DNA from: a virus
Virus record (IMG/VR): IMGVR_UViG_3300015050_000735
Location: 1-42,882 of that record
Reading direction: 5' to 3' (one strand)
Length of the DNA: 42,882 nucleotides
Shown: piece by piece, positions 12,248 to 39,469 of the stretch
How the letters are laid out: each line of letters starts with the position of its first letter
Position numbering within the stretch: the stretch's first letter is position 1
Made by a program: the position numbers and the translations under genes
The notes under the pieces: generated by a model
What the model was told of the DNA's origin: nothing
Databases searched by the model: none
The model's input: only the letters and a program-made list of their open reading frames with translations

Positions 12248-13033
12248 ATGAGCGCGATCCGCAAGGAAGTCGTGATCGGCGAGTGTCGGCTGCTGCTCGG
12301 CGACTGCCGCGACATGGACATCGAACCTGTCGATGCAGTTATCAGCGATCCTCCATACGGCATCACCGCGAACAAGTGGGACACGGACTTTGCGGCGGAC
12401 TGGATTTGGGGCCTCCAGACGGAGGTCTACGTGATGACCGCCTCGCAGCCCTTCACCTCGAAGCTTGTGATGGCGAAGCTGAAATGGTTCCGCCACGAGT
12501 GGGTCTGGATCAAAAATCGCGGCAGCAACTTCGCCAACACAGTTCGCGAACCGATGAAGGAGCACGAGTCCGTTCTGGTCTTCGCGCCGGACCGGTGGAC
12601 CTACAACAAGCAGATGCAGGCGCGGACTGGCGGCGGTGCTGATCGGGTTAAATATGCCTTCACATCTAGGACCGAGACGACAAACTACGGCCATATTGGC
12701 GCTCCCGCAGAACGTCAAGGGGATCTTCGCGTCCCGTCGAGTTGGCAGAAATTCAATTGCGAGGTCGGCAAGCACCCGACGCAGAAGCCGGTAGCACTGT
12801 TCGAGTATCTCGTCCTCACTTACTCGAACGAAGGCAACATAGTCTGCGACCCCTTCATGGGCAGCGGAACAACCGGAGTAGCGTGCATCAACCTCGGTCG
12901 TAAATTCCTCGGTATCGAGCTTGACGAGACGTATTTTGAGGCCGCGTGCGAGCGCATCCAATATGCTTTTGATGCAAAACATCGCGATCAGGTCCCCGTT
13001 CAAGAGCTTCTGTTCTCAGGGGACGCCGCCTGA
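12248..13033 (+). CDS. DNA methyltransferase, N6-adenine/N4-cytosine beta-class (261 aa)
   Basis: N-terminal catalytic motif VISDPPYGI and C-terminal AdoMet motif VCDPFMGSGTTGVACINLGRKFLGIELDETYFEAA. Confidence 0.88.
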   Translation: MSAIRKEVVIGECRLLLGDCRDMDIEPVDAVISDPPYGITANKWDTDFAADWIWGLQTEVYVMTASQPFTSKLVMAKLKWFRHEWVWIKNRGSNFANTVREPMKEHESVLVFAPDRWTYNKQMQARTGGGADRVKYAFTSRTETTNYGHIGAPAERQGDLRVPSSWQKFNCEVGKHPTQKPVALFEYLVLTYSNEGNIVCDPFMGSGTTGVACINLGRKFLGIELDETYFEAACERIQYAFDAKHRDQVPVQELLFSGDAA

Positions 13034-13302: not shown

Positions 13303-13616
13303 TGGACTGGGAACCTCGCGTTGGGATGCCGGTGCTGTGCGTCAGCGATTTGAACGGCCATCGCGCTTTTAAAAGCTGGTCCGGATCGATCCCGACAAGG
13401 GGGGGCGTATACTTTATACGAGAGGTTTTGCCAGACCCCCGACGCGGGTTCAGCGGTGTCTTTCTCCGGCTGCGTGAGATTGTGAACCGTCCATATGACT
13501 CGCATGTTGGCCCCTTCGAGGCCGCTTTTGCAGTCAAGCACTTCCGCCCTCTCGATGAACGCCGGATAGATGTGTTTCGGCAGATTCTTGTCGACTGCCC
13601 GCTTGAGGTTGCTTGA
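13302..13616 (+). CDS. Hypothetical protein (104 aa)
   Basis: MDWEPRVGMPVLCVSDLNGH...GGVYFIREVLPDP. The ATG is coupled to the upstream stop. Confidence 0.62.
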   Translation: MDWEPRVGMPVLCVSDLNGHRAFKSWSGSIPTRGGVYFIREVLPDPRRGFSGVFLRLREIVNRPYDSHVGPFEAAFAVKHFRPLDERRIDVFRQILVDCPLEVA

Positions 13617-13617
13617 T

Positions 13618-14274
13618 ATGCAGGCTCTCAACCTAACAGGCCAGAGATTTGGCAGGCTAATCGCACTTGAACGCGCCCCATCTTCATCGCGTGCGAAGTG
13701 GGTATGCCAGTGCGATTGCGGTTCTCTGAAGGCCATTTCTGCTCTCCATCTTAGGAAAGGGGATACGTTGTCATACAGATGCCTTCACGCCCAGCGAACG
13801 TCAGAAGCGAAGAAGACACATGGGTTTAGTAGGACTCCTGAACACAACGCATGGCTCGGGATGAAGGCGCGGTGTTACAACGAGAAAAACGGTCAGTTTC
13901 ATAACTATGGTGCACGAGGCATCTCTGTTTGTGAACGGTGGTTGGAGAGTTTTCTAAGCTTCTTAGACGACGTTGGGGAGAGACCATCATCGTCCCACTC
14001 TATTGATCGCCGTGACAACGATGGAAACTACGAACCCGGCAATTGTTATTGGGCTACGAAAACCGAGCAGGCACGCAACACCAGATCCAATCTGACGTTT
14101 GATGTTGCAGGCGAGCGGATGTCGCTTATCGAGATCACAGAGCGCTGTAACCTTCCATACAAAAGAATTCATTTACGTCTCCAAAGGGGCAAAGGCTTAG
14201 AGGACGCCGTAGGCAAAGACATATTCCGCGCTGTCCTGACCAAGGCTCCCACTCCTGAGAAGGAGCCAGCATGA
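13618..14274 (+). CDS. HNH_3-like (His-to-Ser variant) DNA-binding protein, free-standing homing-endonuclease-like gene (218 aa)
   Basis: MQALNLTGQRFGRLIAL...WLGMKARCYNEKNGQFHNYGARGISVCERW...HSIDRRDNDGNYEPGNCYWATKTEQARN. Paralog of 4125..4661. It is visibly more AT-rich than its flanks. Confidence 0.72.
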   Translation: MQALNLTGQRFGRLIALERAPSSSRAKWVCQCDCGSLKAISALHLRKGDTLSYRCLHAQRTSEAKKTHGFSRTPEHNAWLGMKARCYNEKNGQFHNYGARGISVCERWLESFLSFLDDVGERPSSSHSIDRRDNDGNYEPGNCYWATKTEQARNTRSNLTFDVAGERMSLIEITERCNLPYKRIHLRLQRGKGLEDAVGKDIFRAVLTKAPTPEKEPA

Positions 14275-14629: not shown

Positions 14630-15129
14630 TCTCCCTACTCTCCCCAGGGAAAGCGCCGCTCGATCTCGCTGGCGCATCCCGTATCCATATTGTCGTTCGA
14701 AGCCCTTACAGCCGAACGACCAAGCTTACGTTTCCCTGCTCGCGCGATCAGCTTCCCGGCCATACGCGCGGCAACATTACCGAGGCTTTCGAAGCAGTCT
14801 TCCGCCTCGCCATCTTCGGTCTAGGGTGCCTTCTCGTGCTGATGATAGGCATTGCGAAGGCGCATGAGGCGCGCACGGTCGCGGGGCAACCTTTGGGGTG
14901 GACCTATGGCTACGAATGCTGCTCGGCCGTCGACTGTAGCGTCACGGGCGACAGGGACATCTCGGAGACGCCGGAAGGCTACCGCATCGAGATCACAGGC
15001 GAAATCATACCCTACGGCGACAAGCGCATCAAGCGTTCGAGAGACGAATTCTTCCACCGCTGCACGCCGGGCGGGGTAGCCACCGCGCCGCGCAGCATAT
15101 GCCTCTATGTTCCCAATCGGGGGTTTTGA
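14626..15129 (+). CDS. Cys-rich membrane-anchored/exported protein (start uncertain)
   Basis: Hydrophobic segment VFRLAIFGLGCLLVLMIGIAKA-HEA, then WTYGYECCSAVDCS...GYRIEITGEIIPYGDKRIKRSRDEFFHRC...ICLYVPNRGF, a pattern recalled from Rhizobiales chromosomal and phage proteins. The only in-frame start I can find upstream is the TTG at 14626. An 8-bp hairpin at 14692..14720 lies in the putative N-terminal region. Confidence 0.55.
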   Translation: MISLLSPGKAPLDLAGASRIHIVVRSPYSRTTKLTFPCSRDQLPGHTRGNITEAFEAVFRLAIFGLGCLLVLMIGIAKAHEARTVAGQPLGWTYGYECCSAVDCSVTGDRDISETPEGYRIEITGEIIPYGDKRIKRSRDEFFHRCTPGGVATAPRSICLYVPNRGF

Positions 15130-16865
15130 TGCAGTCCACAACCTTCCTCGACGGGCGGGTGATGCTGCATTGCGGCGATTGCCTCGACGTGCTGGCGAGG
15201 ATGCCGGAGAACAGCGTCGACTCCGTGGTAACGGACCCGCCCTATCACCTCACCAGCATCGTGAAGCGGTTCGGCAATTCCAACCCTGCCGACGTGGAGA
15301 AGAACGCTGCGGGGCGCAAGATCGCAGGGCAGGGCACAAGCCCTCACGGACGGGCAGCGGCCGGTTTCATGGGTAAGCAATGGGACGGCGGCGACATCGC
15401 GTTCCAGCCTGCCACATGGGCCGCTGTGCTGCGCGTCCTGAAGCCGGGCGGCTATCTGCTGGCCTTCTCAGCAACGCGAAGTTATCACCGGATGGGAGTA
15501 GCGATTGAAGATGCTGGTTTTGAGATCAGAGACCAGATAGGATGGTGTTATGCTTCTGGATTCCCCAAGTCTCTCAACGTTAGCAGAAAGCTCGACGGAA
15601 CTCGTTGCTCTTGTGCGCGACCCGAAAGACCCGATCCGCTTCTGCAACACGACTTGCGATGTGTGCGGAGTGCCGATGTATCGTCGCCCGAACCTGTTCG
15701 TAAAGAACGCCCGGAAGTTTTGTTCCAAGGGGTGCCGGAACACGGCCTACACGGCGCAATGCTACGGGCCGAATCCGAAGAAGGCGGTCAAGGGTGCGAA
15801 GAACAAAGCCTGGAAGGGCGGCGTCACGCATCGCAAGAGGCGCGGGAACTACGTTTCGGTGAAGTATGTCCGTTGCCCGGGTCACCTGCGTTCAATGGCG
15901 AGGACGGACGGCTATGTGATGGAACACCGGAAGGTGATGGCCGAATGGATAGGCCGGCCGTTGACCCGGATCGAATGCGTCCACCACGTCGATCACAAGC
16001 CGCTGAACAATCAGCAAGCGAACTTGGAACTGTGGCCGGACAACCGAAGCCACAAGATGGCGGAGCATGGCCGCATTGCGGAAGGTGCGGCAAACCGATT
16101 GTTCCTGACGGACTAGGGACCGCTCTAAAGCCGGCTTGGGAACCGATCTGTGTTGCCCGCAAACCTCTCTCGGAAAGTTCGGTCGCGGCCAATGTCCTGA
16201 AATGGGGCACGGGTGCGCTGAACATCGACGGTTGCCGGGTCGAGGCGGCCGATCAGGAATCGCTCGCGGCGAATTGGGACCGAGCAAAACACACGGACAT
16301 TCGCGGTGGAAAATATATCGGGGGAACGGCTCAGGGCATAAAGCTCAATTCGAAGCCTGGGGATGGCCGCTGGCCCGCCAACATCGTCCACGACGGCAGC
16401 GACGAGGTGCTGGCGGGGTTTCCTACATCAGAAAGCACCATTGGTAAGCCGCGCGGCGCTGCGAGTGGTGCCGGATGGGGTATGACGCAGACCGGGGCCG
16501 AGTATGACGACGCCGGTTCCGCAGCCCGCTTTTTCTATTCCAGCAAGGCGGACGCCGAGGACCGCATTGGTTCCAAGCACCCGACCGTCAAGCCTCTCGA
16601 CCTCATGCAGTATCTCTGCCGCCTCATCACGCCACCGGGCGGGACCGTGCTGGACCTATTCGCGGGCACCGGCACCACGGGCGAGGCTGCATGGCGCGAG
16701 GGTTTCAAAGCCATCCTGATCGAGCGCGAGGCCGAATATCAGGCCGATATCGCGCGCCGCATGGATCTTGCCGTGAAGCCTGCCAAGCGCGCGGCGGTTG
16801 CCAAGACGAAGAACAATCTCATGGGCGCCGAGGGCACGCCTCTATTCGGGGGAGAAGCCGCATGA
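15129..16865 (+). CDS. DNA methyltransferase (beta-class, DPPY...FxGxG) carrying a ~0.5-kb insertion, with its reading frame still open
   Basis: The ATG at 15129 is coupled to the upstream stop (TGATG). N-terminal part: VVTDPPYHL...GWCYASGFPKS. C-terminal part: GTALKPAWEPICVARKPL...HPTVKPLDLMQYLCRLITPPGGTVLDLFAGTGTTGEAA. The central ~170 codons are Arg/Pro/Glu-rich with weak GC3. Confidence 0.8.
   Translation: MQSTTFLDGRVMLHCGDCLDVLARMPENSVDSVVTDPPYHLTSIVKRFGNSNPADVEKNAAGRKIAGQGTSPHGRAAAGFMGKQWDGGDIAFQPATWAAVLRVLKPGGYLLAFSATRSYHRMGVAIEDAGFEIRDQIGWCYASGFPKSLNVSRKLDGTRCSCARPERPDPLLQHDLRCVRSADVSSPEPVRKERPEVLFQGVPEHGLHGAMLRAESEEGGQGCEEQSLEGRRHASQEARELRFGEVCPLPGSPAFNGEDGRLCDGTPEGDGRMDRPAVDPDRMRPPRRSQAAEQSASELGTVAGQPKPQDGGAWPHCGRCGKPIVPDGLGTALKPAWEPICVARKPLSESSVAANVLKWGTGALNIDGCRVEAADQESLAANWDRAKHTDIRGGKYIGGTAQGIKLNSKPGDGRWPANIVHDGSDEVLAGFPTSESTIGKPRGAASGAGWGMTQTGAEYDDAGSAARFFYSSKADAEDRIGSKHPTVKPLDLMQYLCRLITPPGGTVLDLFAGTGTTGEAAWREGFKAILIEREAEYQADIARRMDLAVKPAKRAAVAKTKNNLMGAEGTPLFGGEAA
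15550..16116 (+). CDS. HNH endonuclease nested in the +1 frame of the methyltransferase gene (188 aa from the ATG, or 167 aa from the GTG at 15613)
   Basis: Zinc-ribbon CNTTCDVCG...FCSKGC and HNH core GYVMEHRKVMAEWIGRPLTRIECVHHVDHKPLNNQQANLELWPDNRSHKM. Strong third-position GC bias in this frame. Confidence 0.82.
   Translation: MLLDSPSLSTLAESSTELVALVRDPKDPIRFCNTTCDVCGVPMYRRPNLFVKNARKFCSKGCRNTAYTAQCYGPNPKKAVKGAKNKAWKGGVTHRKRRGNYVSVKYVRCPGHLRSMARTDGYVMEHRKVMAEWIGRPLTRIECVHHVDHKPLNNQQANLELWPDNRSHKMAEHGRIAEGAANRLFLTD
15600..16116 (+). mobile_element. Homing-endonuclease-gene-like insertion within the methyltransferase coding sequence (left boundary approximate)
   Basis: Methyltransferase-like sequence stops near ...GFPKSLNVSRKLDG (ending at about 15599). 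It resumes at G-L-G-TALKPAWEP, whose GGA-CTA-GGG codons contain the HNH stop TAG (16114..16116). Confidence 0.6.
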
Positions 16866-17086
16866 ACATCGCCTTCGTTCCCCGTTCCTCTCTCCCCACC
16901 CGTCTGGCTCTAGGCTGGACGATCATTCCCGGCGCGCCCCACCCGGCCTCGTGGGCGGTGTTGATGCAGATCCCTGAGATTGCGGTGGATACGCCGGTCC
17001 CATGCTTTCCAGAGCCTATCCGTGGCAGCACCAAGAGCCAGAGCGCACGGTCGCGAAACAAGGTTCGCTACGCGGGGGCTGAGTGA
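16862..17086 (+). CDS. Possible small protein (74 aa, MNIAFVPRSSLPTRLALGW...)
   Basis: ATGA overlap with the methyltransferase stop and TGATG overlap with the rusA start. Confidence 0.45.
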   Translation: MNIAFVPRSSLPTRLALGWTIIPGAPHPASWAVLMQIPEIAVDTPVPCFPEPIRGSTKSQSARSRNKVRYAGAE

Positions 17087-17454
17087 TGGAATTCGACCTT
17101 CCAATGCCGCCGTCCGTCAACAGTCTCTACACGAACGTGTCAGGTATCGGGCGCGTCAAGACGAAGCTCTATCGGAAGTGGATCACCGAAGCCAGCTGGA
17201 TGCTGGTCACTCAACGGAATCAGCGCGGTAGACACAAGCGAGTTGAAGGTCGCGTGTCAGTTACTGTGAAGGCGATGCGCCCGCAAAGGGTCCGCGATCT
17301 GGACAACATACTGAAGGCCATCATGGACCTTCTGAAATCAACGCAAACCATACGAGACGACAGCCAGGTAGTCGAGATCAAGGCGCGGTGGGTTGATGAA
17401 GGCGTTCCTTGCTCGGTGCTGATCTGTGCGGCTGAAGAGGAAACGGCTGCATGA
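17086..17454 (+). CDS. rusA: RusA Holliday-junction resolvase
   Basis: LPMPPSVNSLY...RVRDLDNILKAIMDLLKSTQTIRDDSQVVEIKARW aligns by eye with E. coli RusA (LPWPPSNNRYY...RRRDLDNLQKAAFDAL...DDAQVV). Confidence 0.88.
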   Translation: MEFDLPMPPSVNSLYTNVSGIGRVKTKLYRKWITEASWMLVTQRNQRGRHKRVEGRVSVTVKAMRPQRVRDLDNILKAIMDLLKSTQTIRDDSQVVEIKARWVDEGVPCSVLICAAEEETAA

Positions 17455-20851: not shown

Positions 20852-22261
20852 TTGAAATTGGCTGATTTCAGCCTCACTGCCAAGCAGTCGGAACTCAAAC
20901 CGCTGCTCAGTTCCACAGCCCGTCATGTGCTTCTGTTCGGTGGGTCCAGGTCGGGAAAGACGTTCCTGTTCTGCTACGGGATAGCCACAAGGGCATTGAG
21001 GGCTGCTGGTTCCCGGCATGGCATCTTCCGCAAGCACGGTGTTGCGGTAAAGCAATCGGTGGGCAAGGACACCTTTCCGAAGGTGATGCAGTTTGCTTAT
21101 CCCGATGCTCCCTACAAATGGTATGAGCAGGATGGGCTGTTTGCATTCCCGAATGGGTCTGAGGTCTGGCTTGCCGGGCTGGATGACAAGGAACGCATCG
21201 ACAAGGTTCTCGGCAAGGAATACGCCACCACCTACGAGAACGAAGCGTCCGAGATCAGCTATGATGCTCACACGACGCTGGAATCGAGACTGGCGCAGAA
21301 GGTTGCGGTCACTGTCGGGGATGGGGAATATCTCAGGCAGAAGAACTACGTCGACCTGAACCCGACAACGCAGTCGCACTGGACCTACAAGATGTTCGTC
21401 CAGGGCATCGAGCCTCTGGAGAAAAAGCCGCTTCCCCGCGATGACTATGTGTGGGGAATTGCCAATCCCTCGGACAACAGGGAAAACCTTGATCCTGCCT
21501 ATATCGCTGGGCTGGAGCTTATGCCGAGAGCGAAGCGTGCACGCTTCTTCGAAGGCAAGTTCTCAGGCGATTCCTCCGATGCGTTGTGGACCAGGTCGGT
21601 TATCGACAACAGCCGCCTCTACATCAGGACCGAGACTGAGCTTCCTCATTTCAAGCGCGTGGTGATTGCGCTCGATCCGGCCATATCCAGCGAGACGGGA
21701 TCGAACGAGACGGGCATCATTGCCGCTGCTACGGATGGGCCAGGTCAGGGATATGTGCTTGCCGATGGGTCTGGCGTGTTCAAGCCGGAGGAATGGGCAC
21801 GATCTGCCATCCATCTCTATCACTACTACAAGGCGGACAGAATCGTCGCCGAGGCCAATCAGGGCGGCGAGATGGTGACTGCGGTCATCCATGCCCAAAA
21901 CCCTGACATTCCGGTGACGTTGGTCAAGGCAAGCCGAGGCAAATACATCCGGGCCGAACCTGTTGCAGCTCTCTATGCGAGAGGTCGCATTCGCCATGTT
22001 GGCGAGTTTCAAGAACTGGAAGATCAGATGTGCGTGTTCACGTCTGACTTCGACCGCAAGCAGGAAGGCTATTCGCCGGACAGGCTCGATGCGCTGGTGT
22101 GGGCCTTCACTGAACTGTTCCCCGGCCTGATCTCGGACAGGGGCAGGCAGATGGCGCCTCAGTCCGTCGCTCATGGCGAGTATGACATCTTCGCAGCCGA
22201 AGAGACGGCAAGACGGCTGAACCGGCAGGCGATTGCCGGCATGGAATACGATCCCCTCTAG
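20852..22261 (+). CDS. terL: Terminase large subunit (469 aa; TTG start as given, exact start uncertain)
   Basis: Walker A motif LLFGGSRSGKTF, an ATPase N-terminal half and a nuclease-like C-terminal half (ALDPAISSETGSNETGI...DRIVAEANQGGEM). Its position is before the portal gene. Confidence 0.88.
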   Translation: MKLADFSLTAKQSELKPLLSSTARHVLLFGGSRSGKTFLFCYGIATRALRAAGSRHGIFRKHGVAVKQSVGKDTFPKVMQFAYPDAPYKWYEQDGLFAFPNGSEVWLAGLDDKERIDKVLGKEYATTYENEASEISYDAHTTLESRLAQKVAVTVGDGEYLRQKNYVDLNPTTQSHWTYKMFVQGIEPLEKKPLPRDDYVWGIANPSDNRENLDPAYIAGLELMPRAKRARFFEGKFSGDSSDALWTRSVIDNSRLYIRTETELPHFKRVVIALDPAISSETGSNETGIIAAATDGPGQGYVLADGSGVFKPEEWARSAIHLYHYYKADRIVAEANQGGEMVTAVIHAQNPDIPVTLVKASRGKYIRAEPVAALYARGRIRHVGEFQELEDQMCVFTSDFDRKQEGYSPDRLDALVWAFTELFPGLISDRGRQMAPQSVAHGEYDIFAAEETARRLNRQAIAGMEYDPL

Positions 22262-23477: not shown

Positions 23478-23669
23478 ATGTGCATTGTTAAGCCTCCCAA
23501 ACCGCAGGCTGCACCGCCGCCGCCCAATCCCAACATGGCGAATATCGCGGCTGCGAACGAAATGCGCCGTGCTGCCTCTGAGGGAACGGGTGCGCGAGAC
23601 AACATGCTGACGCGCCTGTCGGATGAGGATGTCCGCAACTCGGCCACCAAGAAGAGGCTCGGCCAGTGA
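23478..23669 (+). CDS. Small virion protein, T7 gp6.7-like (63 aa, start at MCIVKPPKPQ)
   Basis: The N-terminus MCIVKPPKP resembles T7 gp6.7 (MCFSPKIKTPK). Located directly upstream of the portal gene. Confidence 0.5.
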   Translation: MCIVKPPKPQAAPPPPNPNMANIAAANEMRRAASEGTGARDNMLTRLSDEDVRNSATKKRLGQ

Positions 23670-25258
23670 ACGCGGAAGAAATCTGCAAGCGCTTCGACAA
23701 GCTGCATGCGGATCGCGGGGCAGTCATGTCCCACTGCCAGGAAATTGCCGAGTTCATCTATACACGTCGCGCCTCGTTCAACACGGAGCGGACAGAGGGC
23801 GACAAGAGGCAGCAGCGCATCTACGATTCCACCGGCACGCATGCGCATGAGCTTCTAGGCGCTGGCCTGCATGGCATGGCCTCCAATCCGGCAAGCCGCT
23901 GGTTTTCGATGAAGACCGACGACGAGGGCCTGAACGGCCTCGATACGGTCAGGACATGGCTCGATGACGTAGCCGACCGGATGTATTCGCGGATGCATTC
24001 GCCTCGGTCTAGCATCACGACGCACCTGCATGAACTTTATCTGGACCTTGCCGCGTTCGGCACGGCTGTCATGTTCATCGGCACGACCAAGGACGAGACG
24101 CTTTTGTTCCAGACGCGGTTTCTCGGCGAGTGCGTGATTGACGAGAACGCGGAAGGTTCGGTCGATACGGTCATCCGTGAGTTTACGCTCACCGTACGCC
24201 AGATGGTGCAGAAGTGGGGCGATCAGGTTTCCGAGGATGTGCGCAAGAAGCACGCCGATGGGAAGCTTGATGACAAGATCACGGTCCTGCATGCGGTGTT
24301 TCCAAGAGAGGATCGCGACGACCAGAAAGAGACGCCGGACAACATGCCGTATGCGTCGATCTATGTGGAGAAGAAGGCCAAGAACGAGCTTCAGAACGGC
24401 GGGTTCGAGGAATTCCCCTACGCTGTGCCGCGTTGGTATAAGGCCAGTGGCGAACGCTATGGCCGCTCTCCCGCGATGTCTGCCCTCCCTGATGTGAAGA
24501 TGCTTCAGGAGATGATGAAGACGACCATCAAGGCGGCACAGAAGATTGTCGATCCTCCCTTGCTGGTGCCTGATGATGGCATGATCGGCCCGGTTAGGAC
24601 CGTGCCTGGTGGGCTGAACTTCTACCGCGGCGAGCGTGAGATCGTCCCGTTGATGACGGGTGGCAACATCCCGATCTCGCTGGAGATGATGCAGGATCTG
24701 CGCACGCGCATCATGAACACGTTCTTCGTGGACCAGTTGCAGTTCTCCGGTGACGCCAAGATGACGGCGACCGAGACGATGCAGCGCACTGAGGAACGCA
24801 TGCGCCTGCTTGGTCCTATCCTCGGCCGCATGGAAACTGAACTGCTTGGACCGATCGTGACGCGGGTCTTCGGCATCATGATCAGGGCTGGCGAATTCCC
24901 GCCCCAGCCGCAAGAGCTGGATGGCGTTGAATGGCGTGTCGAGTATTCCAGCCCGATTGCCTTGGCCCAGCGTGGGCAGAAGGTGGATCGCGCGGTGATG
25001 ATGCTGACGATTGCAGGTCAGATGGCGGCGTTCGATCCGAACATCATGGCCCGCTTCGACAGCGAGAACTTCCTGCCCTGGATTGCGGGTGAGCTTGGCG
25101 TCGATCCCGATCTTGTCCTGGACGATAGCGAGTTCGAGCAGAAGCAGCAGGCGCAGCAGATGGCTAACATGGCAGGCCCGGCACAGGTGGCGGCGGATGC
25201 CTTCGCCAAGGCAGGGCAGGGCGCCAAGGCGTTCGCAGAAGCAGGAGCGATGCAATGA
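23666..25258 (+). CDS. Portal (head-to-tail connector) protein, podovirus/T7 gp8-like (530 aa)
   Basis: The size and the position between terL and the scaffold/capsid genes fit a portal. GTG start overlapping the upstream stop. Confidence 0.85.
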   Translation: MNAEEICKRFDKLHADRGAVMSHCQEIAEFIYTRRASFNTERTEGDKRQQRIYDSTGTHAHELLGAGLHGMASNPASRWFSMKTDDEGLNGLDTVRTWLDDVADRMYSRMHSPRSSITTHLHELYLDLAAFGTAVMFIGTTKDETLLFQTRFLGECVIDENAEGSVDTVIREFTLTVRQMVQKWGDQVSEDVRKKHADGKLDDKITVLHAVFPREDRDDQKETPDNMPYASIYVEKKAKNELQNGGFEEFPYAVPRWYKASGERYGRSPAMSALPDVKMLQEMMKTTIKAAQKIVDPPLLVPDDGMIGPVRTVPGGLNFYRGEREIVPLMTGGNIPISLEMMQDLRTRIMNTFFVDQLQFSGDAKMTATETMQRTEERMRLLGPILGRMETELLGPIVTRVFGIMIRAGEFPPQPQELDGVEWRVEYSSPIALAQRGQKVDRAVMMLTIAGQMAAFDPNIMARFDSENFLPWIAGELGVDPDLVLDDSEFEQKQQAQQMANMAGPAQVAADAFAKAGQGAKAFAEAGAMQ

Positions 25259-28173: not shown

Positions 28174-30990
28174 ATGGCGACAGACGTAGAGATTGCCTCG
28201 CTCGCGCTGACCCGCATCGGGCATTCGAATATCTCCTCGTTCTCCTCGACGGGGGACAAGGCGCAGCGTTGGTTCAATTCCAACTATGAGACGATCAAGA
28301 AGGCGCTGCTCGCAGAGCATGCGTGGAACTTCGCGATCAAACGCGCCACGCTGTCATCCACGACGGCACCGACGAACGAATATACCAACGCCTACACCCT
28401 CCCCACCGACTTCATCCGCCTCGTGCGCCTCAATGGCGACAGCAAGGCTGGATACCGCGTAGAGCGCGGCACGCTGGCAACCTACGAGGCGACCGCCGTC
28501 ATCGAATACGTCTATGACGTGACCGATGAGGCGACGTTCACAGCCAGCTTCACGGACCTCCTAGCCCAGCGTCTCGCGGCGGAGTCCTGCTTCTACTTCA
28601 CCGACAATACCAGCCTCACCGAAATGTCCTGGAAGGTGTTTCAGGACAAGTTCGCCAAGGCCAAATCGATCGACAGTCGCGAGTCGGCACCCCGCTACAG
28701 GTCCGCCAACATGGCGCTTGCGCGCCTTGGTGAGACGACGCGGCAGGGTGAGGATGGGGCGAACATTCTTGAGAATGCGTCTCGCATCATCGAGGCGAAC
28801 TACGGCACGGTTCGCAAGGCTCTGTTGCGGGAACATCCGTGGAATTTCGCGGTCAAGCGTGTCGCGCTCGTGGCTGCGACGGCGCCCGTCAATGACTACA
28901 CCTATCGCTATACGCTGCCGGCGGATTTCCTCCGCATGGTCAAGCTCAATGCGAGCAACGAGGTCACGCATCGGATCGAAGCGGGCTATCTCGTTTCGGA
29001 CTCTGCCACGGCCACCATCGAATATATCTACGATGTCACGGACGAGGATCTCTATTCGTCCGACTTCCTCGACGTGCTGGCACAGAGGCTTGCGGCTGAG
29101 GCTGCTGCGGCGATCAATCCCCAATCCGCACAGAGCATGTGGAGCCTATATCAGGCCAAGCTTGCCCAGGCCAAGGCGACGGATAGCCGTGAGGCCACAC
29201 CGCGCAAGAAGGCGGCAAACCTTGCGCTGCTGAAGCTTGGTGAGGTCGCCGGAAGGCAGGGCGATGATGCTGCTATCTCGCGTGAGAACGCGGCGCGGGT
29301 GGTTGAAGGGCTTTGGGATAGTTGCCGAGCCGCACTGCTTCGTGAGCATCCCTGGAACTTTGCCATCAAGCGGGTATCGCTGTCCGCCACGACAACGCCC
29401 GTCAATGATTTCGCCTATGCCTATACGCTGCCTGCTGACTTCTCCCGCATGGTCAGGCTCAACGCAAGCAACGAGGTGACGTGGAGGATTGAAGGCGCTC
29501 GGCTTCTGACGGATTCCGCCACGGCGGTCATCGAATACGTCTACAGCGTCACGGACGAAACACTGTTCGATGTCCAATTCTCGGAACTTCTTGCCCAGCG
29601 CATTGCGGCCGAAGCTGCCGCTGCCCTGAACCCAGGTGCTGCCTCGGCGCTCTGGACTGTTTACCAGCAAAAACTCCTGGTGGCCCGAGAGGTGGATAGC
29701 CGCGAGTCGGCGCCCCGCAAGAAGGCCGCGAATATCGCCTTGCTCAAGCTTGGAGATATTGCCGGGAAATCCGGGAACGACGCTCTTGCCGCTCGGGAAT
29801 CGGCTGCGCGCACTGTCGAGGGGCTATGGGACAGTTGCCGCAAGGCGCTTCTGCGGGAGCATACTTGGGGCTTCGCAACCAAGCAGGCCGCACTCGTTCT
29901 CTATGGGGGTAACGCCTACACCCTCCCTGCCGACTTCATCCGTGCGATCCGAGTTAATTCGAGTGAGTCCGAATCAATCCAGATCATCAATGGGCGGCTC
30001 TACACTCTCGCGACAACGCCGACCCTCGATTACATCTATGACATTACCGACGAGACGCTATTCGATGCGCAGTTTTCGGAAGTTCTGGCGCAGCGTATAG
30101 CAGCTGAGGCAGCAATCTCGGTCAACCCCGGCGCAGCGTCCGCGTTGTGGACGGTTTACCAGCAGAAGCTCCAAGCCGCCATCATCGCCGACACGACGGA
30201 GGCGAAGCCATCAGGCGTTGTCGCAAACCTTGCCATGTCGCGTCTTGGTGAGGTCGCGGGCCGCAATGGCGCCGAGCTTCTGATTGCCCGCGCCTCGATC
30301 AAGCGTCATCTCGATTTCAGTTATCCGATCGCTCGTCAGGCCCTGCTTCGCGAGCATTCGTGGAACTTCGCCGTCAAGCGGGCGATCCTGACCAAGGACA
30401 CGATCCGCACCATCACCGGGGCGACTGCGGCGAACCCTGTCGTGATCACGTCGGCGGCTCATGGCTTTGCCAACGGTGCGACGGTCTACATCGATTCCAT
30501 CCTCGGCATGACGCAATTGAACGGTCGCACCTTCACGGTGGCGAACCAGGCGACGAACACGTTCCAACTGTCGGGTGAGAACGGCCTGACCCATACCGCT
30601 TATGCGTCGGGCGGCTATGCCTATCCCTACATCGCCAAGGAATACAAATACCGGTTTGCGCTCCCGGCCGATTGCCTGAAGCTGATCAGGATCAACCGGA
30701 CCGAGGCTGACGAGTATCGGGTCGAGCAGGGCTACGTCTACACCGACGAGAGCGAGGTCGATCTCGAATACGTCATGGACGTGACGGACGAAGACGATTT
30801 TGATTCCCAGTTCACCGATGTGCTGGCCCAGCGTCTCGCGGCAGAGGCGGCAATTGCGTTGAACCCAAGCGCGTCTGGCGCGCTGTGGAACATCTATGAG
30901 CAGAAGCTTCGCATGGCCCGCACGATGAGCGCCCGTGAGGGCACGCCGCGCGGGATCGACGCCGACACATGGATCGACGCCCGTGCCTAG
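28174..30990 (+). CDS. Tail adaptor-like polyprotein: five tandem T7 gp11 (tail tubular protein A)-like modules (938 aa)
   Basis: There are five ~170-aa units, starting near nt 28174, 28699, 29209, 29719 and 30214. Each has A-L-x-R/K-L-G...ALLREH-x-WNFA-x-KR...YTLPADF...IEY-V/I-YDVTDE...LAQR-L/I-AAEAA. The N-terminal pattern matches T7 gp11 (ILASIGE...RQIQSRGWTFN). Confidence 0.82.
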   Translation: MATDVEIASLALTRIGHSNISSFSSTGDKAQRWFNSNYETIKKALLAEHAWNFAIKRATLSSTTAPTNEYTNAYTLPTDFIRLVRLNGDSKAGYRVERGTLATYEATAVIEYVYDVTDEATFTASFTDLLAQRLAAESCFYFTDNTSLTEMSWKVFQDKFAKAKSIDSRESAPRYRSANMALARLGETTRQGEDGANILENASRIIEANYGTVRKALLREHPWNFAVKRVALVAATAPVNDYTYRYTLPADFLRMVKLNASNEVTHRIEAGYLVSDSATATIEYIYDVTDEDLYSSDFLDVLAQRLAAEAAAAINPQSAQSMWSLYQAKLAQAKATDSREATPRKKAANLALLKLGEVAGRQGDDAAISRENAARVVEGLWDSCRAALLREHPWNFAIKRVSLSATTTPVNDFAYAYTLPADFSRMVRLNASNEVTWRIEGARLLTDSATAVIEYVYSVTDETLFDVQFSELLAQRIAAEAAAALNPGAASALWTVYQQKLLVAREVDSRESAPRKKAANIALLKLGDIAGKSGNDALAARESAARTVEGLWDSCRKALLREHTWGFATKQAALVLYGGNAYTLPADFIRAIRVNSSESESIQIINGRLYTLATTPTLDYIYDITDETLFDAQFSEVLAQRIAAEAAISVNPGAASALWTVYQQKLQAAIIADTTEAKPSGVVANLAMSRLGEVAGRNGAELLIARASIKRHLDFSYPIARQALLREHSWNFAVKRAILTKDTIRTITGATAANPVVITSAAHGFANGATVYIDSILGMTQLNGRTFTVANQATNTFQLSGENGLTHTAYASGGYAYPYIAKEYKYRFALPADCLKLIRINRTEADEYRVEQGYVYTDESEVDLEYVMDVTDEDDFDSQFTDVLAQRLAAEAAIALNPSASGALWNIYEQKLRMARTMSAREGTPRGIDADTWIDARA

Positions 30991-33972: not shown

Positions 33973-36482
33973 TGCCGAAGTTCCCAACATATGAGCGATC
34001 GGTGGGGCTGGGCGGGGGTGCCACGGCCTCCTATGCCTCGGATGGCGCATTCACCGCGCCTGGCCGTGCATTGGCAGGGCTGGGCGCAACTGTTGCCAAT
34101 CTCGGCGAGACGTTCGGCGCGGAAGCGGAGAAGATCCGCAATACGCAGGATGAGGCTTGGTTTTCCAAGGCCCGCGCACAAACCGCAACCGAGATGATTG
34201 CGGCAGAGCAGGAGGCGCAGAAAGCGGCGACCGGCGAGGCAGGGACATACATTGCGGATGTCGGGGAGCGGTTCAAGACCAGTCGGGATACTAAGCTTGC
34301 GGAAGCGCCAAGCCCGCGCGCGCAGCAGCTCTATACCCAATGGGCGGACAGCTATGGCGTAGACCTCACTCAAAGGTCTACCCGGTTCCAGGCTGAAAGC
34401 GAACTGACAAAGCGAACCGGCGATTTCGCCGAGGCGATGAACGCGCATTCTCAGGCGATCTTTGCCGATCCTGATCAGTATGACAGCGTCTACAAGCGCG
34501 CGATGGACGACTTCGAGGGCGCCCGCAAATGGATGACGCCTGAGCAGGAGACGAAGGCGCGGGAGACGGTCGACCGCAACCTGAAGCTCTCGCGTGCGAA
34601 GAGCATGGCGCAGTTCAAGCCGGAGGACTTCCTTGCCGAGGTCGGCCGCAACGTTAAAGTGCCGGGCGGTCCTCAGCAGTGGCGCGAAGCCATCTCATCC
34701 ATCGAAAGCGCTGGGTCTGGCGGATATGCCGCAATTGGCCCGCGTCATCCAAAGATGGGCCGCGCGCTGGGCAAATATCAGATTATGGAGTCCAACATTG
34801 GGCCGTGGTCGGAGAAGCATCTCGGCCGGCGGGTGACGGCTGAAGAGTTCATGCGCGATCCGAGCATCCAGGACGCGATCTTCGATGGCGAATTCGGCTC
34901 CTATGTGAAGCGGTTTGGCGACCCCGGTAAAGCCGCGCAGGCATGGATCGGCGGAACGGGTGGCGTGGGCAAGGTCGGGCGGAAGGACGTTCTCGGAACG
35001 AGCATCGGCGAATACGAGGCGAAATTCAATCGCGCCCTGTCCAAGCTAGGCGGCGGTGAGACGGAGATCAGGCAGGGCGGCGACTTCTCAAAAGACCCGC
35101 GCTATGCCGGCCTATCCATTGACGAGATCATGGCGTTGCAGAACGATGCGCAGCGCACGGTCAGCACCCAGCAAAGCACACAATACGCCTCGCTGAAAGA
35201 CCAATTGGAGCTTGGAATTGCCACGGGCCAGATCACGGGCGAAAACCAGATCCTCGGCTCGGGGCTGAATGGTGGCGACCAGGCAACGCTTCTCGGCAAA
35301 CTGCGCACTGCTCAGGAGGATGGCCGCAACCTCACGGAAGCATGGACCGCATTCCGTGACGGGTCTCTCTCGCTCGATTCCTACGACAGCAAGGCGAAAA
35401 CCCTTGTCGATCGGATGGAACGTTCGCTTATGCAGGACAGTGGCGCGACGGGTGATGCGACGAGTGGGGCATCGCCAAGCGCTACCATAGGAGGGGCTGC
35501 GGAACAGCCGACCGGAGGTCTTGGTCGGAGTATCAGGTCCATTTGGACTGACGAGATGGTTCGCCGCACGGGCATTGTTCCGATCGGCACGGTGTCCGAG
35601 ATCAATCGCGGGCTGGAAAGCGGTAAGGTAAAGGACGTGGCTGCCGCTGCTTCCCGCGCAGCGCGTATTCAACAGATTGATCCGGCCGCTCTCAGCAAGC
35701 GCGACAATGGCTCCAAGGCGGCTGACGCGGCCACGGCATTCAATCACTATGTCGATACAGTCGGAATGACCGAGGAACAGGCCGCGCAGAGGATTATTGA
35801 TCAGCGCGACCCTGAAAAGGTGGCGGCTCGCAAGTCGCTGATGGACTCGGAACCGGCGAAGAAGTTCATCAAGGACAAGGCGTCGGAAGCGACAGTCCGC
35901 GATATCTTCGATCCCGGCGTGTTTGGCTTCGACCCTCAGTTGGGAGAGAACCCGCGCCAGGCAGCGGCGATGGTCGGTGAATACCGGTCGATCCTGGAAG
36001 AAAGCCTGTTCGACGCGAATGGCGATGTGGACCTTGCCAAGACATATGCGGACCAGCGCTTTGCGCTTCGCTATGCGCCATCCTCGTTCACACTGGCCGG
36101 CGACAACATCATCACGCGCCTTCCCCCTGAGCGGACCTATCCGGCAGGGCAGGACGGGACGCACGACTATGTGCGCCAACAGGCTATCGAGACGCTGAAG
36201 GCGGAGGGCGTCGAGACGGAGAAGGTGTTTCTCCAAGCCGACGAGAACACGGACGCTGACTGGCGGGCGAAGAAGCCCGCGCGCTACCGGCTGTTTTACG
36301 AGAAGGACGGGAGCGTGGAGATGTTCAACTTCCCGTTCTATGCCGTTCCGCCAGAGGGGGCAGGTCTGTCAGGGAACAAGGCAAAGTGGGAAGAGAACAA
36401 GGCGCAGTTGGAAGCGGGCCGCAACCGTGACAAGTCCTTGGACAACTTCCTTGACGGTGATCCTCTGACGGGTGGCAACTGA
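33972..36482 (+). CDS. Internal virion protein with lytic transglycosylase (SLT) domain (836 aa)
   Basis: ISSIESAGSGGYAAIGPRHPKMGRALGKYQIMESNIGPWSEKHLG at about nt 34690..34830 is an SLT-type catalytic motif. Located in the ejection-protein block. Confidence 0.78.
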   Translation: MPKFPTYERSVGLGGGATASYASDGAFTAPGRALAGLGATVANLGETFGAEAEKIRNTQDEAWFSKARAQTATEMIAAEQEAQKAATGEAGTYIADVGERFKTSRDTKLAEAPSPRAQQLYTQWADSYGVDLTQRSTRFQAESELTKRTGDFAEAMNAHSQAIFADPDQYDSVYKRAMDDFEGARKWMTPEQETKARETVDRNLKLSRAKSMAQFKPEDFLAEVGRNVKVPGGPQQWREAISSIESAGSGGYAAIGPRHPKMGRALGKYQIMESNIGPWSEKHLGRRVTAEEFMRDPSIQDAIFDGEFGSYVKRFGDPGKAAQAWIGGTGGVGKVGRKDVLGTSIGEYEAKFNRALSKLGGGETEIRQGGDFSKDPRYAGLSIDEIMALQNDAQRTVSTQQSTQYASLKDQLELGIATGQITGENQILGSGLNGGDQATLLGKLRTAQEDGRNLTEAWTAFRDGSLSLDSYDSKAKTLVDRMERSLMQDSGATGDATSGASPSATIGGAAEQPTGGLGRSIRSIWTDEMVRRTGIVPIGTVSEINRGLESGKVKDVAAAASRAARIQQIDPAALSKRDNGSKAADAATAFNHYVDTVGMTEEQAAQRIIDQRDPEKVAARKSLMDSEPAKKFIKDKASEATVRDIFDPGVFGFDPQLGENPRQAAAMVGEYRSILEESLFDANGDVDLAKTYADQRFALRYAPSSFTLAGDNIITRLPPERTYPAGQDGTHDYVRQQAIETLKAEGVETEKVFLQADENTDADWRAKKPARYRLFYEKDGSVEMFNFPFYAVPPEGAGLSGNKAKWEENKAQLEAGRNRDKSLDNFLDGDPLTGGN

Positions 36483-39469
36483 TGCCCTTTGACCGGACCA
36501 CTCCCCTTGATGGCGGATATGTCGGCGTGTCGGAATATGACAGGCCAGACCCGGCGTTTCTCGACACGTTGGGCGCGGCCTTCCGCCAAGAGAACCTGAT
36601 CGGCTCCTACATCACTTCGGCGCGGCGGGAGGTGGACGACTTCTACAAGGTCGATCCGGCCTATAACCCCTTCGATGATCTCAAGGGCTATGAGGATTAC
36701 GCCGACAGGTTCGAAAGCGCATTCAATCCGAATGCCGCTGCTGCGATCAAGACGGACATCGACAAGGAAAAGAAGGACCGCGAAATCCTCGCTGCGTCGG
36801 GCTGGACCGGTGTTGGCCTTCAGATGGGCGCGGCGCTTGCAGACCCGACCATCCTGCTCCCCGGTGGCGCATTGGTTAAGGCGGGGCAGATCGGCTACAG
36901 GACAGGCCGCACGGCTGTTGCAGTCGGTGCTGCAGCGGGCATAGGCACAGCGGTCCAGGAAGCGGGTCTACAGGCCACGCAGGAAATCAGGCCGGGATCA
37001 GAGTCAGCGCTTGCCATAGGCGGCTCCATGCTGCTTGGCGGGCTGGTAGGCGCGGCGGGCGCAAAGTTCTTTTCCAATGCGGAATGGAACGCGTTCTCGC
37101 GCAGCCTTAAGGACGATCTCGCGTCTGAAGTCCCGAACCCGGATGAGATTGTCGAGACGATCGTCACGCGGGCACAGTCGGCCGGCGCCGCTGCGGTGGG
37201 CGACAATATCAAGCTGGACGATTTGGGCGTCGGTGGGCCGCGCATCGCACAGGCTATTGCCAAGGCAACGGCGGCGGCGAAGATCAACCCCGGCATCCAG
37301 ACCATGCTCTCGCCGTCGAAGAAGGTGCGCGAGACATATACACAGCTTGTCGATAACCCGATCTATTCCCGCATGAACATGGAAGGGCAAACGCTCGGCG
37401 CGGATGTGGAGAACCTGGTCAAGGAATACCAGCGCGGCATGTTGAGCCAGTGGGTCCGTTCGAGCCGCGACCTCTACAAGGAAGCCAAGACCGGCGGCTT
37501 TACCGGGACCAAGTCGGATTTCTATGAGGCCATATCGAAGGCCGGGCGCCGTGGCGATGTCGATCCGAACGGGAACGAGTTTGTCACGCGCGCCGCTCAG
37601 GAGGCAAGGGCCAAGGTCTTCGACCCGCTCCTGAAGCGCGCTCAGGCGATCGGGGTGCTGCCGGACGATATCAAGGTCGAGACGGCGGCAAGCTATGTCA
37701 CCCGCCTGTGGAGCCGCGAAACGCTGGTCGGGCGCGAAGACGAGTTCCGGTCTATTGCGCGGGACTATTTCCGAAAGGAGATCGCGAAGATCCCTGCGGA
37801 TAAGAGGCCGGATTTCGTCAACGAGGCGGACCTGAAGGATTATGTGGAGGAAGTCGTTTCGTCGGTATTCAACAACCTGACGGGGCGCGGGGCAGGGGAT
37901 GCGCCGTCATGGCTGGTTCCGGTCAAGCGCGGGCCTCTGAAGGAACGCACGTTCAAGATCGCCGATGCCCTGGTCGAGGACTTCCTGGAAAACGACATGG
38001 AACTGATCATGCGCCGCTACACGCGCGTGATGGGTGCTGAGGTCGGGCTTGCCGAGAAGTTCGGCCGGGCGGATATGAAGGATCAACTCGACGCCATCGG
38101 CAAGGATTACGAGGCGCTGCGGAAGCAGGCTAAGACGCCGGAAGAGCGAGAGAAGCTGACGCTGGACGAAAAGCGGGACCGCAAGAACCTGGAAGCCTTC
38201 CGCGACATGATCCGGGGCACCTATCGGGCGGCGGAAGAGTCGTCGGAATGGTCGCGTCTCACGCGCGGCGCGCTGGCGTGGAACTACATGCGCCTGCTGG
38301 GCGGCGTGGTGATGACGAGCCTGACCGATGCGTCCCGGCTGCTCGGCGTTCACGGCGTGCGCAACACGATGAAGGAAGCCCTCCCGGCCCTTGTGTCGAA
38401 TACGGAGGCAGTAAGGATCGCCAAGGCCGATGCGCGCGATCTCGGTGTCGTGTCGGAAACCGTCCTGCAAACCCGGCTGGCGTCACTTGCCGATCTGAAC
38501 GATCCATACGCCTACGGATCGAAGTTCGACCGCTATCTGTCCAATGCGACCAATCTGTTCTCCAAGGCGACGGGGCTTGCCTGGTGGAACGACACGATGA
38601 AGATGATGGCGTCGGTCATGACGCAGAATCGCATCCTGAAGAACGCGGCGGACTGGTCGAAGGCTGGTGAGCGGGAACGTGCCTATATGGCCTTCCTCGG
38701 CATCAACGAGGATATGGCCGGGCGCATCGCCAAGCAGTTCGAAAAGCACGGGGTGGAAGAGAACGGCATTCGCGGCGCCAACATCTCGCAATGGGATGAC
38801 GAGATCGCACGCCGTGCCTATGGCGCAGCTCTGGCAAAGGACGTTGACCGGACCATCATCACGAAGGGTGTGGCGGACACCCCTCTGTGGATGAAGACGA
38901 ATTGGGGCAAACTGATCATGCAGTTCAAGTCCTTCGGGCTTGCCTCGCATCAGCGCGTCCTCATTGCCGGGCTTCAGGAGCGCCCGCACAGGCTGGCGGA
39001 GCAACTGGTTTTCGCCACGGCCATTGGCATGATGATCTCCTATCTGAAGTTCGTGGAACGCGGGGATATGGATGAGGCCGAGAGGCTTTTGAAAAACCCC
39101 GGACTGTGGATCGCGAACGGGCTGGACAGGACCGGAATTCTGTCCCTACCATTTGAGGTGTCGAACACGGCCGAGAAGCTGGGCGCACCGTTCGGCATCA
39201 CCACGGCGATGCAGAAGATGGCAGGGGATGAAGATGTTGGCGGGCCAGTTTCTCGTTATGCCTCACGCAACAAGCTGGGCGCGGTGCTTGGGCCGAGCGC
39301 CGGGCTATTTCAGGATCTGGCCGTGATTGCCGAACAGCTTTCGAAGGGCGACCTGAAGCAGAGCGGGGCGAACGCCATCATCCGCCAGATCCCCGGCGCG
39401 ACACTGCCGGGTGTCAGAAGCGCGATCCACCTCGGGGTTAAGCCCGCGCTTGTGGACGCGGTGGAATGA
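36482..39469 (+). CDS. Large internal virion / ejection protein (995 aa)
   Basis: The size and position fit. Gly/Ala-rich hydrophobic segments (GAALADPTILLPGG..., AVAVGAAAGIGTAVQEAGL, LAIGGSMLLGGLVGAAGA). Confidence 0.68.
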   Translation: MPFDRTTPLDGGYVGVSEYDRPDPAFLDTLGAAFRQENLIGSYITSARREVDDFYKVDPAYNPFDDLKGYEDYADRFESAFNPNAAAAIKTDIDKEKKDREILAASGWTGVGLQMGAALADPTILLPGGALVKAGQIGYRTGRTAVAVGAAAGIGTAVQEAGLQATQEIRPGSESALAIGGSMLLGGLVGAAGAKFFSNAEWNAFSRSLKDDLASEVPNPDEIVETIVTRAQSAGAAAVGDNIKLDDLGVGGPRIAQAIAKATAAAKINPGIQTMLSPSKKVRETYTQLVDNPIYSRMNMEGQTLGADVENLVKEYQRGMLSQWVRSSRDLYKEAKTGGFTGTKSDFYEAISKAGRRGDVDPNGNEFVTRAAQEARAKVFDPLLKRAQAIGVLPDDIKVETAASYVTRLWSRETLVGREDEFRSIARDYFRKEIAKIPADKRPDFVNEADLKDYVEEVVSSVFNNLTGRGAGDAPSWLVPVKRGPLKERTFKIADALVEDFLENDMELIMRRYTRVMGAEVGLAEKFGRADMKDQLDAIGKDYEALRKQAKTPEEREKLTLDEKRDRKNLEAFRDMIRGTYRAAEESSEWSRLTRGALAWNYMRLLGGVVMTSLTDASRLLGVHGVRNTMKEALPALVSNTEAVRIAKADARDLGVVSETVLQTRLASLADLNDPYAYGSKFDRYLSNATNLFSKATGLAWWNDTMKMMASVMTQNRILKNAADWSKAGERERAYMAFLGINEDMAGRIAKQFEKHGVEENGIRGANISQWDDEIARRAYGAALAKDVDRTIITKGVADTPLWMKTNWGKLIMQFKSFGLASHQRVLIAGLQERPHRLAEQLVFATAIGMMISYLKFVERGDMDEAERLLKNPGLWIANGLDRTGILSLPFEVSNTAEKLGAPFGITTAMQKMAGDEDVGGPVSRYASRNKLGAVLGPSAGLFQDLAVIAEQLSKGDLKQSGANAIIRQIPGATLPGVRSAIHLGVKPALVDAVE

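Follow-up and report, generated by a model that had tools for sequence, protein, structure and literature searches.

Homing endonuclease genes are thought to persist in useful or even essential genes only by way of introns, inteins or gene splitting. The phage contig analysed here, IMG/VR virus record IMGVR_UViG_3300015050_000735, raises the question of how such a gene could sit in a useful gene that shows none of these. Within it, a gene for an HNH endonuclease lies out of frame inside a gene for a DNA methyltransferase (methylase), and the methylase frame stays open from one side to the other. The window, by which we mean the whole stretch of DNA analysed, is the complete record of 42,882 nucleotides (nt), an entire 42.9-kb metagenomic phage contig with a guanine–cytosine (GC) content of ~60%. 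We consider it probable that an HNH homing gene has become lodged in a loop of the methylase, with 513 bp that would be dual-coding and a methylase frame that would be read straight through them, neither RNA nor protein being spliced. For the dual coding itself the support, at the level of sequence evolution, is such that we hold it with high confidence.

The host gene is an open reading frame (ORF) of 579 codons including the stop (15129..16865, +) that reads straight across the insert and would encode a beta-class N6/N4 DNA methyltransferase of 578 amino acids (aa) and 61.7 kDa. The ORF includes VVTDPPYHL, GWCYASGFPKS, GTALKPAWEPICVARKPL and DLFAGTGTTGEAA. Its product matches Pfam PF01555 (N6_N4_Mtase) at 1.2e-22, and the PHROG family phrog_67 covers residues 1–554 in a single stretch (3.5e-63). 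The catalytic motif IV, DPPY (15234..15245, +), and the S-adenosylmethionine (AdoMet)-binding motif I, FAGTGTTG (16659..16682, +), were read out from the sequence. Motif IV lies N-terminal to motif I (FxGxG), the order of the beta class, and with these matches the 579-codon gene with beta-class ends that an initial annotation had recognised from the letters is confirmed. D36, P38 and Y39 of motif IV and F511, G513 and G515 of motif I are invariant in a 90-sequence alignment, the catalytic and AdoMet residues being unchanged across a mixture of insert-bearing and insert-free methylases. In an AlphaFold2 model built with 90 homologues the core on both sides of the insert has a predicted local distance difference test (pLDDT) score above 90. 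When this model was used as a query, Foldseek returned CcrM (6pbd, 1.2e-9) and also M.BceJIV, M.RsrI and MboIIA, with ~540 aligned columns that take in both halves of the protein. As modelled, the two halves would form a single methyltransferase fold with its core intact.

Alignment to insert-free alleles places the inserted element at 15600..16112 (+), which amounts to 513 bp or 171 host-frame codons. The extra segment falls between ...GFPKSLNVSRKLDG and LGTALKPAWEP in the alignment with insert-free homologues. GACGGA is present at both junctions (15594–15599 and 16107–16112), and the edges of the insert are ambiguous within this 6-nt repeat. The initial annotation had set the stop-free segment at about 15600 to 16116; the open host frame and the left edge stand, and the right edge moves to 16112. 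In the host frame the repeat encodes Asp-Gly, and several relatives have (D/N)G at the left junction and (D/E)G at the right. It could represent a duplicated target or microhomology used at insertion. The native loop at this position is 10–70 aa long in insert-free alleles, and the best explanation is that the insert occupies a naturally variable, permissive surface loop between the GFPKS strand and the GWGTALKP motif.

Which of the two frames sets the codon usage in the insert can be seen from the GC content at the third codon position (GC3). This is 0.45 in the methylase frame and 0.78 in the HNH frame of the insert, as against 0.71 in the native parts of the methylase. The host-frame reading is dominated by four residues (G21 R20 P20 E18 of 171), so that the weak third-position bias and the Arg/Pro/Glu-rich sequence first described for this segment are both real. 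The HNH stop codon, TAG (16114..16116, +), lies, just as the initial annotation had it, within GGA-CTA-GGG (16110..16118), the first host codons after the insert. At this point insert-free alleles read GWG and insert-bearing alleles read G(L/I)G, and it is the CTA or ATA codon in the latter that creates the TAG of the HNH gene.

The HNH homing-endonuclease ORF is in frame +1. Read from a conserved GTG it spans 15613..16116 (+) and would encode 167 aa (19.2 kDa, isoelectric point 10.1). An alternative start is the in-frame ATG at 15550, which has AGGA 9–12 nt before it, sits within the conserved GWCYAS codons of the methylase and would give 188 aa (15550..16116). This longer ORF, which contains VHHVDHKPLNNQQANLELWPDNRSHKM, matches HNH families of PHROG, the best being phrog_20891 at 1.4e-16. 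Nine HNH-annotated families are matched at E <=0.1, six of them at <=1e-5, and the tenth match, phrog_2308, has an annotation without a function. The predicted nuclease begins with a zinc ribbon, CxxC...CxxxC (C15, C18 ... C37, C41; 15655..15735, +), whose cysteines are invariant in alignments of 9 and of 51 sequences. The putative catalytic core, HHVDHKPLNNQQANLELWPDNRSHK (15982..16056, +, HNH frame), carries the conserved His and Asn residues. H124, H125, H128, N133, N137 and H147 are invariant in nine HNH copies, those of the window and of eight viral relatives (L001–L008), and in the 51-sequence alignment the same residues are invariant except for H124, which is nearly so (>=90%). The HNH-frame ORFs in relatives are 54–72% identical to that of the window.

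Further evidence on the nature of the HNH product comes from its homologues and from modelling. Pfam HNH_3 is matched by 41 of 51 close homologues (49–72% identity), with a best value of 6.4e-9, and metagenomic gene calls include 366 HNH homologues as small proteins in their own right. The AlphaFold2 model of the HNH protein (pLDDT 82), inspected for the beta-beta-alpha-metal fold of His-Me finger endonucleases, has a strand-strand-helix arrangement at residues 122–151. Compared with BFVD, it matched 33 viral models at <=1e-3, and most of the named ones are HNH or homing endonucleases, the top match being an "intron-encoded HNH endonuclease" (4.9e-9). An HNH profile run against PDB sequences gave no match. 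The PHROG matches and the GC3 of the HNH frame bear out the zinc-ribbon HNH gene with strong third-position bias that had been read from the +1 frame.

Could the host frame be open over the HNH gene by chance? The third position of each HNH codon is the first position of a host codon, and a host stop therefore needs an HNH codon that ends in T and is followed by AA, AG or GA. T is found in none of the 43 stop-creating contexts of the window, compared with 20 of 123 other contexts. When the HNH codons were shuffled synonymously the host frame came out stop-free in 204 of 20,000 shuffles (1.0%), with 3.7 stops expected, below the ~10% above which the initial annotation would have taken an open frame to be common. 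As a control, T was counted in seven ordinary genes of the window, where it stands in 12.7% of such contexts; at that rate P is ~0.003 for 43 contexts.

Relatives were examined as well, and these were retrieved solely by similarity of the HNH protein, so the state of the host frame had no part in choosing them. In eight viral contigs the HNH gene lies within a methylase ORF that is open throughout, with synonymous shuffles stop-free in <=0.04%. Pooled over these contigs, T occurs in 0 of 403 dangerous contexts and in 260 of 1169 elsewhere (Fisher p = 1e-37). A scan of genome contigs with the single HNH sequence came back empty, and an alignment-based scan gave 18 bacterial and archaeal loci. 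The sources include Polaromonas, Reyranella, Deinococcaceae, Solirubrobacterales, Cupriavidus, Myxococcales, Spirochaetes, Bacteroidetes, Verrucomicrobia, a metagenome-assembled genome (MAG) of Methanospirillum and Chloroflexota, among others. The host frame is open in 17 of these 18 loci, where T is again absent from dangerous contexts (0/665, against 314/1829 elsewhere). It is open even in copies with a GC3 as low as 0.37–0.49 (L020, L023, L027 and L063). A wider viral scan gave at least 200 matches; 80 were kept, among them 69 distinct copies, and 64 of the 69 have no stop in the host frame.

Taking all distinct relatives together, 81 of 87 have zero host-frame stops. In these 81 embedded copies the wobble base before AA, AG or GA is C 1205 times, G 1619 times and A 545 times and is never T (0/3369), while T makes up 21.3% of the other wobble positions. 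The frames differ too: 674 stops are found when this DNA is read in the other alternate frame, and 0 when it is read in the host frame. In the six split or free-standing relatives there are 1–31 host-frame stops each, 91 in total, and T stands at 30% of the dangerous positions. As a matter of sequence comparison this is decisive: host-frame stops are specifically avoided and the frame is kept open by selection.

The product of the host frame seems itself to have been shaped. The insert has a CxC motif at its left end (TGC TCT TGT; 15606..15614, +) and a CxxC motif at its right end (TGC GGA AGG TGC; 16077..16088, +), each present in 51 of 51 insert-bearing homologues; across these 51 the right-hand pattern is CxxCG.P. 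At the left end the lineages have entirely different readings in the HNH frame and all keep the CxC, and in two of the viral relatives (L003 and L005) the likely ATG of the HNH gene coincides with the CxC or follows it. In L005 the HNH tail at the right end is VPDAVCRVYLMD in place of AEGAANRLFLTD, and here too the host-frame CxxC is retained. That the motifs are kept where the HNH frame has changed or is non-coding argues that the cysteines are selected in the methylase frame. Elsewhere, conservation in the host frame follows that in the HNH frame (e.g. LEGR = WKGG). In the AlphaFold2 model residues 168–307 have a pLDDT below 50 and no secondary structure, and the score returns to ~80 at residues 310–340, around the CxxC-GTALKP segment. 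It would seem that the insert is a disordered loop-out with its ends tied by the four cysteines, probably as a zinc clasp. Compared with synonymous shuffles, the codon choice in 20 related copies may make the host peptide slightly more hydrophilic; the shift is consistent though slight (mean z −1.0 in hydropathy, −1.5 in the hydrophobic fraction), and these copies are non-independent. Together with the shuffles and the 81 open relatives, the cysteines support the dual-coding insertion of a homing gene into a permissive loop, which was one of the two explanations that the initial annotation had left standing.

The locus might have arisen and might work as follows. An HNH gene of the free-standing type would have entered a variable surface loop of a phage beta-class methylase. 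From an internal start, frame +1 would yield a zinc-ribbon HNH nuclease of 19–21 kDa, which presumably cuts insert-free methylase alleles, and repair would then copy the element in, as in homing. Frame 0 would yield a stop-free, hydrophilic and disordered linker of ~170 residues. The CxC and CxxC at the ends of this linker probably clasp, most likely around zinc, and the methylase halves could then fold into one enzyme that would be active with the loop in place. More tentatively, and as a possibility to which we give less than even weight, the element may be a portable, splicing-free cassette, in which frame +1 is a spreading nuclease and the host frame has been made into a harmless linker whose four-cysteine (zinc) clasp travels with it.

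Signs of movement are found in the pattern of identity along the methylase. Compared with an insert-free homologue, P0016, the window methylase is 92% identical over residues 1–60, 100% over 61–112 and 97% over 501–578, and the flanks of the insert are 51% (residues 113–157, left) and 55% (328–360, right) identical. The same flanks are 64–88% identical to those of nine insert-bearing methylases, and 67–88% in all but one. At both ends these nine proteins are mostly 48–66% identical to the window, with P0002 and P0004 at 77–92% C-terminally. The DNA of L028, the contig of P0016, matches the window at 15123–15478 (88%) and at 16365–17089 (81%), the right segment taking in the end of the methylase and the downstream neighbour gene; the central 886 bp (15479..16364) have no match. 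The insert is disjunctly distributed among related methylases, and its closest backbone relative, P0016/L028, is free of it. On sequence grounds, a swapped central cassette is consistent with homing accompanied by co-conversion of the flanks. Methylase residues 361–420 and 421–500 are each closest to different homologues.

Relatives of the same HNH gene are also found in other states. In nine of the loci (L016, L018–L021 and L023–L026) the HNH gene is in frame +1 within an intein-like element of the same methylase family. The layout is WVYG, then the element CLSEDTE...DQIVSRNHRC...VWCIRVPSGAFVARRNGKVFITGN, then SGFPKS (e.g. L021:953-1969), so that the element is inserted between G and SGFPKS, a few codons upstream of the window site. 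It is stop-free over the HNH gene, and the reading of the intein frame across the HNH gene is homologous to the host-frame insert sequence of the window. The intein-like segments of L021 and L026 had no match in an NCBIfam scan, and the assignment as an intein hence comes from homology to the published intein of gp65 from mycobacteriophage ShiLan, with which the element aligns end to end (3e-17).

In two low-GC phages (L055:2045-3593 and L090:1103-2701) the same HNH gene is in the same loop and the methylase is split into two ORFs. The GC3 of these HNH genes is ~0.26, and the old host frame holds 20–31 stops. The N-terminal fragment stops just before the HNH gene. The ATG of the C-terminal fragment lies over the 3′ end of the HNH gene and is served by a strong Shine-Dalgarno sequence of its own; the fragments bear extra tails, which are possibly complementary. 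A free-standing copy is found on plasmid pCPAA3 of Curtobacterium pusillum (L017:2700-3639), directly downstream of an intact, uninterrupted N6_N4 methylase gene. It has one stop in the former host frame within the HNH match, where ~4 would be expected, and by its sequence looks as if it had recently departed from the embedded state. A distant member of the HNH lineage from a Cloacimonadota MAG (L027:293-2458) has the same relative frame, a GC3 of 0.49 and no T at 54 dangerous wobble positions; its host is a different N6_N4 methylase subfamily (PF01555, 4.5e-40), and its cysteine-rich junctions are its own.

In a neighbour-joining tree of the HNH proteins the intein-nested and naked copies fall roughly apart, and the split and free copies are nested among embedded ones; the tree, built from ~150 aa with a distant outgroup and with classes labelled heuristically, is too weak to show in which direction evolution went. 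The naked, intein-nested and gene-splitting forms suggest, again tentatively, that one HNH lineage may switch among read-through, protein splicing and splitting. What decides between the forms may be how little it costs to maintain an open host frame, and the naked, nested and split series may show how inteins gain or lose endonucleases.

Several points weigh against the interpretation of the locus as a read-through homing insertion. There are two candidate starts for the HNH gene, the GTG at 15613 (insert nt 14–16), which has a weak Shine-Dalgarno sequence, and the ATG at 15550, and a scan of the + strand for promoters and terminators gave no site that could account for expression of the HNH gene. 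The HNH copy of the window itself has no Pfam HNH_3 match at E 0.01, and a Foldseek comparison of its model with the PDB was not significant, I-HmuI being at E 3.1. The methylase family is mosaic in general, so a swapped cassette is no proof of homing. One of the control genes has by chance a 178-codon open run in the same alternate frame, and open-frame arguments from a single sequence are weak at this GC content for that reason; the gene concerned is a long structural gene (36482–39469). The window sequence alone is a ~1% event, which is suggestive and not conclusive. The relatives, for their part, are homologous to one another and so are not fully independent trials.

Other explanations of the open frame have to be set beside the read-through insertion. 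The nested HNH protein could be a working partner of the methylase, as in a restriction-modification-like or addiction pair, with the overlap serving co-inheritance or co-regulation. The HNH lineage is seen exclusively with N6_N4 methylase genes, whether embedded, intein-nested, split or adjacent, and two further genes of the phage nearby encode another methylase and another HNH protein. Against a partnership stand the patchy distribution of the insert, the many insert-free alleles of the same methylases and a close insert-free relative in which the central cassette is swapped. The insertion site falls where the DNA of the gene is most conserved, and the HNH protein resembles homing and intron-encoded HNH endonucleases. 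All these features are typical of homing elements, and we regard a partnership as improbable.

Very improbable, too, is that the host-frame insert is translated and then removed or cut, either by cysteine-dependent splicing of an unconventional type or by a protease acting on the loop. Such a process would need the open frame that is seen, the conserved cysteines stand at both ends of the insert, and the same HNH lineage is nested in the intein-like element of the same methylase family only a few codons upstream. A disordered loop of 140 residues would also be an easy target for a protease. The host-frame insert, however, matches nothing in Pfam or NCBIfam and is without Hint or intein blocks. 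It begins with TRCSC and ends in ...PDG before LG, and hence lacks both a C-terminal Asn and a Cys, Ser or Thr nucleophile at +1. The HNH frame constrains what it can encode, and the model shows it without structure. The initial annotation had set an intein aside because of the frame of the HNH gene, and the missing blocks, terminal Asn and nucleophile lead to the same conclusion.

Removal at the RNA level, by an unrecognised self-splicing intron or other excision that would leave the host-frame reading unused, is in our view highly unlikely. HNH genes are common in group I introns of phages, the top match of the HNH model bears the name of an intron-encoded enzyme, and the short repeats at the junctions could in principle pair with a guide sequence. 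In an Rfam scan of 15300..16400 by E-value, on the other hand, there were only chance matches to small nucleolar RNA and microRNA families (E >=1) and no intron, whether of group I or of group II. Only ~13 nt of the insert lie outside the HNH ORF, which leaves no room for a ribozyme core, as had been supposed from the sequence at the outset. If the RNA were spliced there would moreover be no reason for the absence of T from 3369 wobble positions or for host-frame cysteines in 51 of 51 homologues. We give almost no credence to the other explanation left standing by the initial annotation, a dead methylase whose open frame is a by-product of high GC: at ~60% GC long alternate-frame ORFs are common, the 178-codon control run being one, but the idea is contradicted by the 1% shuffle probability, by open frames in copies with a GC3 of 0.37–0.49, by 81 of 87 open relatives against 674 stops in the other frame and by the invariant catalytic and AdoMet motifs, and it was rejected on the data from relatives.

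How does a read-through insertion of this kind compare with systems already described? Splitting of a gene by a free-standing homing-endonuclease gene is known from nrdA of Aeromonas phage Aeh1, which is split by mobE. As in the lineage studied here, a homing-endonuclease gene is found in a conserved gene with neither intron nor intein, and L055 and L090 match this type. The window differs from it in that its methylase is one continuous ORF.

The closest parallel is the ShiLan domain, described in mycobacteriophage ShiLan and about ten relatives as an extra 202 aa within the DNA methylase gp65 (Arsenault, Gosselin, Gogarten, Genes 2025, PMC11855218). It has a stop-free host frame, no intron or intein features and a hidden HNH ORF of 195 aa in another frame, and its authors, in a computational study, propose that the insertion stays in the protein as a loop (PMC11855218). 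The same paper contains no test of stop avoidance, no proteobacterial example and no cysteine clasp (PMC11855218). The initial annotation named no described example of the arrangement; one exists, and in this the annotation was mistaken.

The gp65 protein belongs to the same methylase family as that of the window (BLASTP 3e-28), sharing the GFEIRD, SGFPKS, GWGTALKP and NID/RWP motifs. The two insertions are alike in their stop-free host frame, in the zinc-ribbon HNH gene in an alternate frame, in the lack of an intron or intein signature and in the modelled loop-out. In both, the HNH gene starts a few nt into the insert, with a GTG at nt 18–20 in ShiLan and at nt 14–16 in the window, and stops at the extreme right edge. 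The ShiLan HNH protein is a distant homologue of that of the window (tblastn 1e-6, ~30% identity), and synonymous shuffling of its gene gave 1.9% stop-free sequences. The site is different, the ShiLan insert lying within GWGTALKP, between its K and P, and the window insert before (L/W)GTALKP, six codons upstream. The HNH frame also differs, being +2 in ShiLan and +1 in the window. The host-frame product of ShiLan is without CxC...CxxC and has been described as a hairpin or helical bundle, whereas that of the window would be a disordered loop bracketed by cysteines. ShiLan-type insertions are found in actinobacteriophages, and the window is a phage of ~60% GC with a methylase segment like that of a Rhizobium phage and with relatives in many phyla. 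With a different site, a different frame and ~30% identity between the HNH proteins, the window is the same kind of element as ShiLan from a different lineage. Judged by these comparisons, it is a new and much more widespread lineage of the kind described in 2025 (PMC11855218), not a new kind. The new way of sparing a host gene that was envisaged at first is thereby reduced to a new lineage.

A second methylase insertion with a hidden HNH-like ORF was reported in gp60 of Pacc40, where its authors are less sure that the ORF encodes an HNH protein (PMC11855218). By its description it resembles the window in having an out-of-frame nuclease-like ORF in a methylase gene and an in-frame product that is disordered and uninterpretable, and relatives of the Pacc40 ORF are free-standing beside insert-free methylase genes, as is L017 in the lineage of the window. 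The description also sets it apart, with a different methylase family and a different site. A preprint survey of actinobacteriophage inteins from 2025 reports HNH domains only in frame within inteins and none in methylases, and does not list an out-of-frame HNH architecture. The inteins of that survey and the window have in common a nuclease gene that overlaps a host frame which must stay open, in another frame or on the other strand; unlike these inteins, the window element is entirely without a splicing domain.

The surroundings of the methylase gene are those of a phage genome, with a RusA-like resolvase (17083–17454), a large terminase (20852–22261), a portal or head-tail adaptor protein (23666–25258) and a tail protein (28174–30990). 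About 2 kb upstream of the methylase (12248–13033 and 13570–14274) are a second, uninterrupted N6_N4 methylase (phrog_67, 5e-61) and a free-standing HNH endonuclease, which is of a different family from the nested one (phrog_374, 9e-67). A megablast search of 14900..17100 against GenBank phages gave no close sibling genome, and the sole match was of 63 nt to the methylase of a Rhizobium phage.

In 2025 a third route by which a homing endonuclease gene may persist in a useful gene, without splicing, was put forward on the basis of about ten mycobacteriophage genes, with no statistics given (PMC11855218). The relatives found here, at least 200 matches in viral contigs together with genomes from many phyla, indicate that this splicing-free route is common and phylogenetically broad. 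What is new is the evidence that the host frame is kept open by selection, along with the apparent adaptation of the host-frame product and its cysteine clasp. Gene callers annotate either just the long methylase ORF or just the short HNH ORF, and overlaps of this sort are systematically missed as a result. One nuclease lineage, present at a single locus as naked, intein-nested, split and free-standing copies, offers a tractable comparative series in which to test how selfish elements keep down the cost to their hosts and how inteins acquire endonucleases.

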